Source of the DNA: a plasmid
Assembly: GCF_057098645.1 (NCBI RefSeq)
Contig: NZ_JBXSPU010000006.1
Reading direction: 5' to 3' (one strand)
DNA: 4,063 nucleotides
Shown here: positions 1 through 4,063 of the stretch, one piece after another
Layout of the letters: each line of letters starts with the position of its first letter
Position numbering within the stretch: the first letter of the stretch is position 1
The notes under the pieces: generated by a model
Told to the model about the DNA's origin: nothing
The model's input: the letters and a program-made list of their open reading frames with translations, nothing else
Databases searched by the model: none
Position numbers and translations under genes: made by a program

Positions 1-810
1 ACGTAGTGTGTACGAAGTTGCGTTGTCAGGAAGCCCGATATTCAGAAGGTCAGCCACACGGCGGGCAGGCTCTGTCAGCCCTCCGTTCCTGAGTTCGGTG
101 CGGGAAATCTGTATTTCCAGGTTAAGCCTGTTAATCAGACGATTCTGTTCGCCGCGTTCTGTTTCGATACCGCGTGTTTCCATCGCACAGGCAGACTTTC
201 CGAGGTGAATACCAGGCGTTTTCTCAAGCCCCTGTCGCTCGTATGAACGATGGTCTATCTCTTCCTGATAACCGGCGTTCGCCAGTGCCCTGTTTGCATG
301 GTCAGCCCATGATGCCCGCCACGTCTCGGCATGTGTCCGGTCGTTCCAGTCCCTGACCTTTCCGCTGAACCCAGCAGGTCCGATAGCCCTCGTGGTCAGC
401 ATGATGTGCGCATGGGGATTTGTTTTATCCATGTGATGGAACGCCACATCAGCAATCATGCCCTGACTGACAAAGTTTTCTCTGACAAAGGCGAGAACGG
501 TTTCCCGTGCGGCATCCTGCGGCAGTTCGTGGGGGATGGCGAGTTCAATTTCCCGCGCAAGTTGTGAGTTCTTCCGGCGTTCGGCCTTCTCAACGGCATT
601 CCAGAGTTCGGCACGGTTCGTACACCAGGCAGGGGCGGTGGCGGGGGTCAGAATCACAGCCTCAGCCACACCGCTTTTGCGGGTGTAGTCGTGAGTCAGT
701 CCGGTACGCTCATCAAGCATCAGTGAACCGGAACGATAGGCAGCGGAAGCTACGGCGCTGTAGCCGCTGCTTCTGGAGATAATTTTCATGCTGAGATGAT
801 AAATCGCCAT
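1..810 (-). CDS. mobA: MobA/MobL-family (MOBQ) relaxase, N-terminal relaxase domain; partial, ORF runs off the left window edge
   Basis: Minus-strand frame is open from ATG (plus 810-808) to position 1, 270 codons with no stop (translated by hand). The product starts MAIYHLSMKIISRSSGYSAVASAAYRSG..., with Tyr at residue 25, a His-rich motif NPHAHIMLT, and ...WADHANRALANAGYQEEIDHRSYERQGLEKTPGIHLGK.... These match my recollection of RSF1010 MobA (MAIYHL..., catalytic Y25, HxH motif, ...WADHANRALERAGHDARIDHRTLEAQGIERLPGVHLG...). An upstream in-frame stop lies at 916-918. The gene is absent from the supplied ORF track because it has no in-window stop. No strong Shine-Dalgarno precedes the ATG. Confidence 0.85.
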   Translation of the reverse strand, partial: MAIYHLSMKIISRSSGYSAVASAAYRSGSLMLDERTGLTHDYTRKSGVAEAVILTPATAPAWCTNRAELWNAVEKAERRKNSQLAREIELAIPHELPQDAARETVLAFVRENFVSQGMIADVAFHHMDKTNPHAHIMLTTRAIGPAGFSGKVRDWNDRTHAETWRASWADHANRALANAGYQEEIDHRSYERQGLEKTPGIHLGKSACAMETRGIETERGEQNRLINRLNLEIQISRTELRNGGLTEPARRVADLLNIGLPDNATSYTLR

Positions 811-988
811 TTCTGCCGTAATGCCTTTTTGTAGTTTTCTTTCAGCCCCGCAGGGCGCACACAATCGAAACGGAGTGGAGATTGTATAAGTGCGCACTTC
901 GTGATTTGCCGTGCATTATGCCAGCTCAGTTTTTAAACTACCAGTGACGCGCTAAAATGCGATTTTTCATCGCGCACGGAGTTACATC
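811..988. other. Candidate oriT and divergent mobA/mobC promoter region with MOBQ-like nic-core motifs
   Basis: Intergenic region between divergent mobA and mobC. Plus strand 887-897 reads TAAGTGCGCAC. Minus strand (reverse complement of 852-860) reads GTGCGCCCT. Both resemble the RSF1010/R1162 nic core TAAGTGCGCCCT as I recall it. The two motifs sit in an imperfect inverted repeat: GCGCACACAAT (855-865) and ATTGTATAAGTGCGC (881-895). A -10-like TAAAAT lies at 953-958 upstream of mobC. Confidence 0.5.
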
Positions 989-1243
989 ATGAGCAGAACG
1001 CTCGAACAGAAGATTGCTGATGCTGAGGCGAGATTACAGCGCCTGAAGGCGAAGAGCCGGAGCCTGGACACAGCGCAGAAGGTTGTTGTGGGTGCTGCAT
1101 TGCTGGCAAAGGTCAGAAAGCCGGAGGAGGTGCAGTTGCGTGCCTGGTTACTCCAGTTCCTGAAGGCAGAGGTGACACGACAGGCTGATGTGACGCGCAT
1201 ACTGCCGCTGATTAACGAGCTGGAGGCGCTGCCAGAACAGTGA
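989..1243 (+). CDS. mobC: MobC-like mobilization accessory protein (relaxosome component), 84 aa
   Basis: ATG at 989 with a GGAG Shine-Dalgarno at 978-981 (7-nt spacer) and TGA at 1241-1243. The product contains ...AQKVVVGAALLAKV..., resembling the RSF1010 MobC motif ...RKVLVGAMILAKV... as recalled. Size and position (divergent from mobA across oriT) fit mobC. Confidence 0.65.
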   Translation: MSRTLEQKIADAEARLQRLKAKSRSLDTAQKVVVGAALLAKVRKPEEVQLRAWLLQFLKAEVTRQADVTRILPLINELEALPEQ

Positions 1244-1499: not shown

Positions 1500-1590
1500 C
1501 GTTAAGTTTTTAAGATCTTATTTTTAGATCTTTTTTTTTAAAACCTTTTTAGGTCTTGTAACACCATGATTTTAAAGATGTTCTGGCAAG
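1500..1590. other. AT-rich region of oriV (candidate DNA unwinding element) with two AGATCT (GATC) sites
   Basis: Strongly AT-rich, with T-runs (e.g. 1531-1539). AGATCT occurs at 1513-1518 and 1526-1531. It lies between the DnaA box and the iterons. Confidence 0.5.
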
Positions 1591-1594
1591 ATAA

Positions 1595-1678
1595 GTGGAG
1601 CTTTTGGGGGTGAAAGGTGGAGCTTTTGGGGGTGAAAGGTGGAGCTTTTGGGGGTGAAAGGTGGAGCTTTTGGGGGTG
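1595..1678 (+). repeat. Iterons: three perfect tandem 22-bp direct repeats (GTGGAGCTTTTGGGGGTGAAAG) plus a fourth 18-bp partial copy; RepA binding sites of oriV
   Basis: Perfect copies at 1595-1616, 1617-1638 and 1639-1660; partial copy at 1661-1678. The repeats are contiguous with no spacers and lie about 100 bp upstream of repA. A 22-bp unit is roughly two helical turns. Confidence 0.9.
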
Positions 1679-1776: not shown

Positions 1777-2478
1777 ATGTCAGATCTGATAGCTTACAAA
1801 TCAAACGCCCTTATCGAGGCAAGCTACAAGCTCACTTTGCAGGAACAGCGCTTCCTGCTGGTCTGTATCAGCCGCCTAAAATCCGGAGAAGATTCCCCTT
1901 CGCCGGATGAACAAAAAACCATGACCATCACGGCTGCAGAGTTTCATGATGCCTTTCCTGACATGGGACGGCAGCACGCTGAAGCTAGGCTCAAGGAAGC
2001 GATAGATCGCCTCTGGGACAGGTCAGTAATCATCAAGAACGAGGAAAAACGAGAAGAGTTCCGCTGGGTGCAGTACCGGGCGCAGTATTTCAAAGGTGAG
2101 GCGAAAGTAGATATCACCTTCTCCGATGCCATCATGCCGTATCTGACACAGCTCAAGGGGCAGTTTACGCGGGTAGTCGTGAAGAACGTCTCCAGCCTTT
2201 CCAGCACCTACAGCATCCGCATTTACGAGCTGCTCCAGCAGTTCCGCAGCACCGGTGACAGAACGATAGCTATCGATGATTTCCGAACCATGCTTGCCGT
2301 TGAAGATAAATATCAACAATTCAAAGACTTGAATAAGATGATAATCAAGCCAGCCATCGCCGAACTGAACGAAAAAAGCGATCTGGTTGTAGCTGTTGAG
2401 ACGATCAAAAAGGGGCGCACGGTTGTAGCCCTGCATTTTCGCTTCAAGGAAGACAAACAGATCAAGATGACGATCTAA
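1777..2478 (+). CDS. repA: Rep_3-family plasmid replication initiator (iteron-binding RepA), 233 aa
   Basis: ATG at 1777 and TAA at 2476-2478. The product has MSDLIAYKSNALIEASYKLTLQEQRFLL... and ...ITFSDAIMPYLTQLKGQFT...YSIRIYELL..., matching the pattern of pSC101-type RepA as recalled (MSELVVFKANELAISRYDLTEHETKLIL..., ...LTFSEEILPYLFQLKK...YSMRIYEWLL...). It sits directly downstream of the iterons. Confidence 0.9.
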   Translation: MSDLIAYKSNALIEASYKLTLQEQRFLLVCISRLKSGEDSPSPDEQKTMTITAAEFHDAFPDMGRQHAEARLKEAIDRLWDRSVIIKNEEKREEFRWVQYRAQYFKGEAKVDITFSDAIMPYLTQLKGQFTRVVVKNVSSLSSTYSIRIYELLQQFRSTGDRTIAIDDFRTMLAVEDKYQQFKDLNKMIIKPAIAELNEKSDLVVAVETIKKGRTVVALHFRFKEDKQIKMTI

Positions 2479-2725: not shown

Positions 2726-4063
2726 TCACTGTGACCAACCGCGATCATGTCTCCTCTCGGTGGTGTGTGTTCGTGCATCTTCCTCGCGCTGCCATTCCTC
2801 CCAGGTACGATTAAAACCCAGCGAGCGGAACAGATGATCCGGCTGTTTTTCTGGTGTGTTGACGGCAGCAAAAAGCGGTGCCTCACGGGTTTTCAGATGA
2901 AACTGCATCAGTTCTGGTGCAGGTGATATGTGGCTGTCTGCATCGTGATTTACGGCAACACCATACCCTGCATACCGTAACCCCTTATCGGTCAGCGCAC
3001 TGATGACCAGATGCCTGTTATCGGCTGAGGGAACGGCAAACGCGGGATACAGCGTACCATTAAGCCGGATAACACCGCCCAGAGAGTCATCCACGCCCAT
3101 GACCAGCAAAAGCTGAAGCTGGCGGGTTTCCCGGTCGACAGAACTCATGACCGGCATCAGCGTCGGTGGCAGACGTCCCTGCATAAAATCCACCTTCCTT
3201 GCCGCTGGTGATGGCATGGCTGGCTGGCGGTCTTCTCCAAGACAGAAAGACTCCGGCCATGTCTTCGGCTGGCGGAGATTGCGGGTATGTTGCGGCCATG
3301 TCTGGCAAACCTGCGTCAGCAGTTGCTCAAAGGTTGCAGAGGAATAAACACGTTGCAGTGGCGGACGTTGGCCGATTTCGCTTCGGTCACAGATATAACC
3401 ACTCCTGTCACGCATTAAATCAACACTCTCAAAGATTCTGGTGCGGTATTTCTCCAGCTCGTTCCCCCAGAGCGTATATTCTCCGTTCCGGTTGTGAAGC
3501 AGAAGGTAACAGGTCATTTCCCCGTTACCAGGCATGGGAGCCTCGCCATACCCCGTAACGACTGCTCTCAGCACCCCTGAATCCATAACGGCATTGTCAT
3601 TTTTCCTGAGCTGCTCCGCGCGACTACGTTCAGTATCTTCCTGTTCCTTCCGGCGCAATTCCTCTTCACGTTTAAGCAACTGGGCTCTGAGAGCTGCAAG
3701 GCCGGATTCCCCCCACTGCTGCCACTGTTTTTCAAATGCCATCTGACTCGCGGGAATGTCCTGTTTCTCCACCTTCCGGTAATGCTGTCGTAATTTTTCC
3801 ATTTGCTGGCTCAGAGACTGGATTTTTCCCTGCTCACTACGGTATTCCGGTGCCGCCCATTGCATCAGGGGAATACGGGAAAAACCGGACGAAAACGGCG
3901 ATGATTTTTTCAGGCTGGCAGCATGGCTCATCGCTTCCTTTCGTTCGGTGTTCAGCTCTTCCCAGCGTCTGCGCGTCGCCTGCATATCTGCCATCATCGA
4001 CATGGCATTACTGGTGAGTTTCCATGCCGAGTTACTGTCCTTCGGCAACGCTTCGATAATGTC
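2726..4063 (-). CDS. mobA: Long ORF with complete 3' end and frame open to the right window edge; most likely the C-terminal ~445 codons of mobA continuing across the junction of a circular molecule, otherwise a 5'-truncated gene of unknown function
   Basis: Minus-strand frame has no stop from 4063 down to TGA at 2726-2728. E. coli-like codon usage (CTG-rich). The supplied track starts at a TTG at 4048, but five further sense codons (DIIEA) precede it up to the edge, and no in-window ATG has a convincing Shine-Dalgarno. The last codon at the right edge (4061-4063) and the mobA codon at the left edge (1-3) are both complete, so on a 4063-bp circle the two ORFs join in frame (...SYTLR|DIIEALPKDSNSAWKL...) into about 715 aa. 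The N-terminal ~150 residues of this part are charged and helical (e.g. LLKREEELRRKEQEDTERSRAEQLRKN); the remainder is globular with no Walker A or other motif I can recognise. Confidence 0.6.
   Translation of the reverse strand, partial: DIIEALPKDSNSAWKLTSNAMSMMADMQATRRRWEELNTERKEAMSHAASLKKSSPFSSGFSRIPLMQWAAPEYRSEQGKIQSLSQQMEKLRQHYRKVEKQDIPASQMAFEKQWQQWGESGLAALRAQLLKREEELRRKEQEDTERSRAEQLRKNDNAVMDSGVLRAVVTGYGEAPMPGNGEMTCYLLLHNRNGEYTLWGNELEKYRTRIFESVDLMRDRSGYICDRSEIGQRPPLQRVYSSATFEQLLTQVCQTWPQHTRNLRQPKTWPESFCLGEDRQPAMPSPAARKVDFMQGRLPPTLMPVMSSVDRETRQLQLLLVMGVDDSLGGVIRLNGTLYPAFAVPSADNRHLVISALTDKGLRYAGYGVAVNHDADSHISPAPELMQFHLKTREAPLFAAVNTPEKQPDHLFRSLGFNRTWEEWQREEDARTHTTERRHDRGWSQ

Follow-up and report, generated by a model that had tools for sequence, protein, structure and literature searches.

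Predicted nicked strand and surrounding fold at the known oriT of a MOBQ4 plasmid from Escherichia coli

Between the divergent mobA and mobC genes of a small E. coli plasmid, two motifs that recall the nic core of RSF1010 face each other on opposite strands, within the arms of an imperfect inverted repeat. The question raised by this arrangement is which of the two strands is cut by the relaxase. The first-pass annotation of the locus held that the nicked strand could not be decided from the sequence, a view that is not supported by conservation, synteny, a strand rule and the geometry of the site. Indeed, comparison of related sequences makes it very probable that the plus strand is nicked and that the minus-strand motif is no second nick site. 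Homology with RSF1010 places the predicted nick between G894 and C895. The next sections discuss the element itself, the evidence on the strand, the helices that surround the predicted nick, and the mechanism that they may serve.

The plasmid and its oriT

The window, i.e., the whole stretch of 4063 bases that was analyzed, is a complete circular E. coli plasmid of the MOBQ4 family (MOBQ41, pIGWZ12-like). Several complete E. coli plasmids of 4063 bp match it end to end at 100% identity, among them pEC224_6 (typed as mobilizable, MOBQ and rep_cluster_1778), and its three genes are mobA (mobQ), mobC and a Rep_3-type rep (Table 1). The first of these, annotated as a mobQ of 2148 nt in an identical plasmid, appears in the list of open reading frames only as a 440-aa fragment with a false TTG start, because the gene spans the window ends. 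Its product passes the NCBIfam MobQ equivalog (266 bits versus a cut-off of 200), and the solved structure closest to its relaxase domain is that of NES (4HT4, E = 4e-28), the enzyme that cuts the pSK41/pGO1-type oriT, ahead of RSF1010 MobA (2NS6, E = 8e-12), which is only distantly related. The relaxase adjoining the oriT is of the MOBQ class, and its catalytic tyrosine and histidine triad (Y25, H125, H133 and H135) do not vary in either alignment A3 or alignment A4, the latter being the closer set that was used in the search for related loci, for which A3 was too diverse. MobC shares 36% identity with its RSF1010 counterpart over 66 aa (E = 9e-7) and gave no significant match to the Pfam and NCBIfam profiles. 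Upstream of rep, the A+T-rich repeats and the iterons form the replication origin described for pIGWZ12.

Table 1. Positions of the genes, repeats and oriT elements within the window.
Feature	Position	Strand	Remarks
mobA, N-terminal relaxase domain	1-810	-	ATG at 810; gene crosses the window ends into 2726-4063 (-); 715 aa
mobA-mobC intergenic region, oriT of MOBQ4 plasmids	811-988	+	exactly 178 bp, between the mobA ATG (810, minus strand) and mobC (from 989)
Mini-hairpin A, CCC-GCA-GGG	847-855	+	directly abuts the outer left arm
GTGCGCCCT	852-860	-	complement of A852, of the right arm GGG of mini-hairpin A (853-855) and of CGCAC (856-860)
Match to TAAGTGCGCCCT	852-863	-	2 mismatches
Outer left arm, CGCAC	856-860	+	complementary to GTGCG (890-894), which immediately precedes the predicted nick
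Hairpin B	861-885	+	arms ACAATC (861-866) and GATTGT (880-885), loop of 13 nt
Spacer ATAA	886-889	+	between hairpin B and GTGCG; one-sided bulge of the extended repeat
Nic core, TAAGTGCG^CACT	887-898	+	1 mismatch to TAAGTGCGCCCT; predicted nick G894 / C895
Palindrome AAGTGC / GCACTT	888-899	both	perfect, 12 bp; spans the predicted nick
Match to TAAGTGCGCCCT	889-900	-	2 mismatches
mobC, relaxase accessory protein	989-1243	+	84 aa; annotated as mobC in identical plasmids
A+T-rich repeat region	1507-1550		upstream of rep
Iterons	1595-1678		22 bp, 3.8 copies (GTGGAGCTTTTGGGGGTGAAAG), 5' of rep
rep, Rep_3-type	1777-2478		product matches the RepM and RepE family models

The MOBQ4 relaxase family was defined by Garcillan-Barcia et al. 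2019, with pIGWZ12 (MOBQ41) and ColE9-J (MOBQ42) as prototypes, and the C-terminal half of its relaxases has low homology to the SogL primases (PMC6856555). For both MOBQ41 and MOBQ42, the 178-bp fragment between mobA and mobC was mobilized in trans, when a MOBQ4 plasmid provided MobA and MobC and R64drd11 provided the mating channel; splitting the fragment at nt 70/71 abolished the transfer, the relaxase acted at least 500-fold better in cis, and mobC was helpful and dispensable (PMC6856555). Thus, the test proposed by the first-pass annotation, i.e., cloning of the region and mobilization of the clone, has already been performed for the MOBQ4 family. The same study defines the oriT only as the 178-bp fragment, with nic, strand and internal structure not mapped there (PMC6856555), and a limited literature search found no experimental nick mapping for this family.

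The intergenic region of the window, rightly taken for an oriT in the first-pass annotation, is 99% identical to that of pSE11-6 and 93% identical to that of pVR50F, both listed as MOBQ4 members (PMC6856555). It is the same element as the MOBQ4 oriT of pIGWZ12, pE2022_4 and ColE9-J, from which nothing in the sequence sets it apart, ColE9-J having the same hairpin, core and left element. A Rep_3 rep with iterons, mobA, mobC, the 178-bp oriT and the near-identity to listed members make up the MOBQ4/MOBQ41 backbone, and all the sequence-level features that define a MOBQ oriT, and specifically a MOBQ4 oriT, are present in the window. The region is an already known element, the oriT of a MOBQ4 (MOBQ41, pIGWZ12-type) mobilizable plasmid, and the finding is in itself ordinary, as this is one of the commonest small cryptic plasmids in E. 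coli and Salmonella. The function of the 178-bp oriT is taken from the literature, and the anatomy, conservation, co-variation and strand rule described below come from the present analysis.

Two opposed motifs and the choice of strand

On the plus strand, positions 887-897 read TAAGTGCGCAC, and the assignment of this motif to the RSF1010-type nic core in the first-pass annotation is well founded, with 11 of the 12 bases of the published MOBQ consensus, NWACCNNTAAGTGCGCCCTYNN, being present. The window likewise shares 11 of 12 bases with the core of the RSF1010/R1162 oriT (MOBQ1), which is nicked at TAAGTGCG/CCCT and whose substrates are written ...CCGGTAAGTGCG/CCCTCCC. At position +2 after the predicted nick the window has A, whereas both the consensus and RSF1010 have C. 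This CACTT variant of the core is widespread and occurs in many relaxase-linked oriTs; it was seen, among others, in oriTs from Ahrensia, Competibacter and Desulfatitalea.

When the whole plasmid was scanned on both strands for TAAGTGCGCCCT, allowing up to 3 mismatches, only three matches were found, all of them inside 852-900 (Table 1). Over 2 x 4063 positions, simple arithmetic predicts about 0.02 matches that have no more than 1 mismatch; the plus-strand core is thus not a chance match. For the minus-strand match with 2 mismatches, taken alone, the expectation is about 0.3, but this match belongs to the inverted repeat. The third match occurs because the core lies in a perfect 12-bp palindrome, which escaped the first-pass annotation and makes the core read alike on both strands. 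For this reason, the sequence of the core alone cannot fix the strand, and the evidence has to come from relatives of the plasmid.

Among the aligned plasmids, GTATAAGTGCGCACTTCGTG (884-903, plus strand) is invariant in 8 of 8 that bear mob genes and in 7 of 9 mob-less ones, and single-base variants of the core were seen in two mob-less plasmids (L005 and L007). In the mob-bearing set, where GTATAAGTGCGCACTTCGTG is constant, the left motif varies between CAGGGCGCAC and CAGACCGCAC. In the nine mob-less plasmids it is CAGACCGCAC or CAGATCGCAC, so that their minus strand reads GTGCGGTCT or GTGCGATCT.

The reason for this variation becomes apparent when the left motif is read on the plus strand. 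The reverse complement of 852-860 is GTGCGCCCT, as had been reported in the first-pass annotation, and this motif is the complement of two plus-strand structural pieces, namely the end of mini-hairpin A and the outer left arm. GTGCG is found in it because the outer arm must complement the core, and its final CT because the mini-hairpin has A as the last loop base and C:G as the closing pair. The motif reads CCCT in the window because the stem of the mini-hairpin is CCC/GGG, the commonest variant; the two middle bases of CCCT are whatever this stem supplies, and in relatives the AGGG at 852-855 (the last loop base and the right arm) is AGAC, AGAT, AGAG or AGAA.

These observations bear directly on the possibility that the nick is placed on the minus strand, at GTGCG^CCCT (complements of 856 / 855), with transfer of that strand and entry of mobA first. 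In favor of such a nick, GTGCGCCCT is an exact 9-mer match to the RSF1010 core over the three quarters at its 3' end, where it has the canonical CCCT absent from the plus core, and GCAGGGCGCAC is also kept in several distant relatives. However, CCCT is replaced by GTCT or ATCT in the small plasmids and in MOBQ42 plasmids that bear mob genes, jointly with the left arm of mini-hairpin A, which indicates that the mini-hairpin determines it. A minus-strand nick is highly improbable. The cross-recognition between MOBQ41 and MOBQ42 (PMC6856555) was also considered as a proof that the minus-strand CCCT is dispensable, and it was rejected because ColE9-J, the MOBQ42 plasmid of that study, has the same CAGGGCGCAC as the window.

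Further support for a nick on the plus strand was provided by the position of the core with respect to the relaxase gene, as the two lie on opposite strands in all 44 relaxase-linked relatives scored (44/44). Synteny agrees with this, since the core of RSF1010 reads towards mobC and away from mobA, and that of a pSK41-like plasmid away from nes. In a scan with a DNA pattern, the loci with an adjacent relaxase homologue had the core opposite the relaxase gene in 15 of 15 cases, 66-285 nt upstream of its start, and in a relaxase-based scan the best core match (at most 1 mismatch) was on the opposite strand in 29 of 29. The sample behind the latter scan consists of 60 loci and is free of motif bias, because these loci were found via the relaxase protein alone. 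A scan of contigs with a 14-mer returned mostly chance matches, only about 25 of 120 having an oriT layout. In the window, 77 nt separate the plus-strand core from mobA, which is encoded by the minus strand; this core obeys the strand rule and the minus-strand motif does not, a best match on the relaxase-coding strand having been found in 0/15 and 0/29 relatives.

Geometry also weighs against the minus strand. The layout common to the relatives is a hairpin, then A, then TAAGTGCG^C, whereas on the minus strand of the window nothing separates GTGCG from the hairpin, neither the TAA of the core nor the 4-nt spacer. One could also envisage that both motifs are used, with the relaxase nicking either strand of a bidirectional oriT, as the region is pseudo-symmetric and the core palindromic at 888-899. 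This reading is extremely improbable, since it inherits every argument against a minus-strand nick and RSF1010 MobA fails to cleave substrates that present the hairpin and the nick in the wrong order; no MOBQ system is known to be nicked on both strands.

Three helices around the predicted nick

The imperfect inverted repeat of the first-pass annotation, 855-865 (GCGCACACAAT) and 881-895 (ATTGTATAAGTGCGC), is indeed complementary save for the 4-nt bulge ATAA. A repeat search returned arms at 849-860/890-901 and at 861-866/880-885, and the repeat resolves into two helices, the inner hairpin B and an outer pairing of CGCAC with GTGCG, to which mini-hairpin A adds a third (Table 1). Folded as DNA, the plus strand of 840-905 reaches -12.4 kcal/mol (z = -2.5), and 3 of 200 shuffled sequences were as good. 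Pairing in the three helices holds for 99.4% of the cells in alignment A2, with compensatory change in 3 pairs, versus 21-42% in slid controls.

Hairpin B co-varies among close relatives, ACAATC/GATTGT versus ACAAAC/GTTTGT, and more than 14 different perfectly complementary stems occupy its position in distant ones. Nearly all relatives have A and TAA 5' of GTGCG, and in most of them the outer left arm lies 0-2 nt from the hairpin. The outer pairing co-varies with the core, being GTGCG/CGCAC in 25 distinct oriTs, GTGGG/CCCAC in four (with three different hairpins), and TTGCG/CGCAA in a Ti plasmid and two others (again with three different hairpins). The exceptions are two alphaproteobacterial plasmids, in which a GCGCG core retains CGCAC, and RSF1010 together with one other locus, in which the adjacent outer arm is absent. 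These counts refer to full layouts upstream of a relaxase only, since the loose core pattern gave many spurious rows.

Mini-hairpin A abuts the outer arm in 27 of 37 distinct oriTs, versus 5 of 37 when it is slid by 1-3 nt. It was found with eight different stems in all, with compensatory changes such as CCC/GGG, GTC/GAC, ATC/GAT, CTC/GAG, TTC/GAA and TCC/GGA, and the loops of the relatives are GCA, GGCA, AGCA, GGTA, GGA and, once, TTTA. A GCA, GGCA, GGTA or GGA loop closed by C:G, as in this 3-bp mini-hairpin, belongs to a DNA loop type of unusual stability. The stems tabulated are those that passed a hairpin finder requiring perfect or near-perfect stems, which 15 of the 16 relaxase-linked loci of the first sample did, the hairpin of the remaining one (L032) lying about 20 nt further away. 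As the sequences compared are often kin, the numbers of oriTs are not numbers of independent events; the differing hairpin stems nevertheless show many separate lineages. A literature search, with several key papers outside its reach, found no description of the outer pairing and the mini-hairpin, and querying texts with the sequences of the left element brought up nothing relevant. That the outer arm and the mini-hairpin co-vary throughout the family may be new.

Co-variation of two half-sites could also reflect a changed specificity of a protein, and the extended inverted repeat and mini-hairpin A might serve chiefly as binding sites for MobC or MobA in the DNA duplex. In that case, their role could be the assembly of the relaxosome or the autoregulation of the divergent mob promoters, either of which is compatible with a plus-strand nick. 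The elements do sit between two divergent genes, and the mob promoters of RSF1010 overlap its oriT and are autoregulated. We nonetheless regard a role mainly in the duplex, in either of these forms, as unlikely. The distance between the outer arms is very variable, because hairpin B has stems of 5-12 bp and loops of 2-20 nt, and this variability fits intrastrand pairing better than a rigid dimer on the duplex. Moreover, the stems of hairpins A and B vary freely as long as complementarity holds, and a simple scan of 760-1040 gave no sigma-70-like promoter and no terminator.

The first-pass annotation had also set the geometry of the site apart from that of RSF1010. For the inner hairpin this no longer holds, because it lies 5' of the core and 9 nt from the predicted nick, as in RSF1010 (8 nt) and in the pSK41-like oriT (9 nt). 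Beyond this hairpin the distinction stands, as in the window the five bases preceding the nick take part in an outer pairing that co-varies and has no adjacent equivalent in RSF1010. As in the window, the hairpin of RSF1010 is 5' of the nick, and its core, on the strand that codes for mobC, lies about 100 nt ahead of this gene and reads away from mobA. The stem and loop measure 6 bp and 13 nt in the window versus 10 bp and 3 nt in RSF1010, which is without a CGCAC arm or a mini-hairpin beside the hairpin and has a GCGCAC about 35 nt further upstream. The RSF1010 oriT sequence used in this comparison matched IncQ1 plasmids at 100%. In RSF1010 (L018:560-600), GAGCGCAC followed by a GAA-loop hairpin, CGCCC-GAA-GGGTG, was observed about 35 nt upstream of the oriT inverted repeat; these pieces resemble those of the window and differ from them in order and spacing.

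The pSK41-like oriT, cut by NES, has a hairpin and ATAAGTGCGC, 10 nt identical to the window, and nes is encoded by the other strand. Its hairpin is immediately preceded by (A)GCAC, which is comparable to the outer left arm of the window. It differs from the window in the CCCTTA after the nick, in its 7-bp stem with a GAA loop and in belonging to a staphylococcal conjugative plasmid, and mini-hairpin A was not detected in it. The nick of this oriT was set on the sequence of a pSK41-like plasmid at what we take to be the position cut by NES. The oriT of the Ti-plasmid TraA (MOBQ2), from a conjugative system, has the same layout as the window, with left arm, hairpin, TATAA, five bases and nick on the strand opposite traA. 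Its core TTGCG and left arm CGCAA constitute a compensatory pair change with respect to GTGCG and CGCAC.

Proposed mechanism and further oriT-bearing plasmids

In RSF1010, the relaxase binds the hairpin at its base, the adjoining single strand extends into the active site, and the nick is attacked there by Tyr25; NES operates in the same way. In the window plasmid, MobA, with Tyr25 as the catalytic residue, would bind hairpin B (861-866/880-885) and the single-stranded ATAAGTGCG after it, cut between G894 and C895 and remain on the 5' end. The strand that codes for mobC, i.e., the plus strand, opposite to mobA, would be transferred 5' to 3' from C895 via the mating channel of the helper plasmid, so that mobC and rep would enter first and the hairpin and mobA last, with the hairpin serving termination. 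Both the exact position of the nick and the order of these steps are what we infer for this plasmid. The useful outcome is a precise prediction, for the MOBQ4 family, of the nicked strand and of the phosphodiester (plus, G894 / C895).

Besides the A at position +2 and the palindromic core, two considerations would count against this explanation. If the 70/71 split of the 178-bp fragment was numbered from the mobC side, a fragment with the whole conserved core failed to transfer; with numbering from mobA, the split would fall within hairpin B, between G880 and A881. In addition, any pairing of the five bases that precede the nick would have to be opened before cleavage.

A tentative proposal, with less than even prospects in our judgement, is that many MOBQ systems hold these five bases in a helix with a guide arm that lies beyond the hairpin, with a mini-hairpin with a GNA loop stacked at the nick. 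Should the mini-hairpin and the outer helix form on the transferred strand, the branch point between the two would coincide with the nick, and this junction might position the scissile phosphate or hold the 3'-OH for rejoining at termination; alternatively, the fold of the complementary strand might keep the nick region melted. The proposal covers MOBQ4, the Ti-type TraA and relatives from many phyla, and for the pSK41-like oriT it extends to the left arm alone, without the mini-hairpin. In the IS200/IS605 transposase TnpA, an HUH enzyme, guide bases beside a hairpin pair with the bases of the cleavage site. TnpA is a working analogy only, as it is a transposase, its pairing is non-canonical, and the guide and the cleavage site are arranged differently. 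If the outer pairing and the mini-hairpin are functional, a component of DNA structure would take part in how MOBQ relaxases find or reseal the nick, and oriT prediction on plasmids that lack a relaxase would improve.

Some observations made along the way concern the diversity of these elements. A tandem duplication of the 9-bp unit CACTTCGTG, aligned to 895-903, occurs in L011, L013 and L003, the last with three copies, and in about 7-10 of 483 PLSDB records. Its left boundary is at the predicted nick G894 / C895 or at most 1 nt from it, which speaks for this placement of the nick, and the duplication could result from replication slippage or be the footprint of faulty rejoining by the relaxase. 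In two distant relatives (L103 and L159), the left arm is longer and amounts to a near-perfect inverted copy of TATAAGTGCGC, so that the oriT is one long palindrome with a core-like motif on both strands.

Nine small plasmids with no annotated relaxase gene (L002-L010, e.g., L002:55-225), eight of 1.5-2.3 kb and one of 5.6 kb, share only about 70 bp with the window (approximately 834-904). They carry a MOBQ4-type oriT core with mini-hairpin, CGCAC, hairpin and ATAAGTGCGCACTTCGTG. About 50 nt upstream and in the same orientation, all of them except pPM18 (L009) also have an I-complex (R64-like) oriT, ...CAATTGCACATCCTGTCCCG, the I-complex part being 90-94% identical to conjugative plasmids of 87-120 kb. 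With both oriTs on one small plasmid, these replicons could hitch-hike on two unrelated relaxases. Similarly, three Candidatus Competibacter contigs of 5-6 kb (L066, L067 and L068) each hold two different MOBQ-type oriTs, one with TAAGTGCG^CAYTT after an ACATCGC hairpin and the other with AAAGTGCG^CCCTCCC after a GGGTTTC hairpin.
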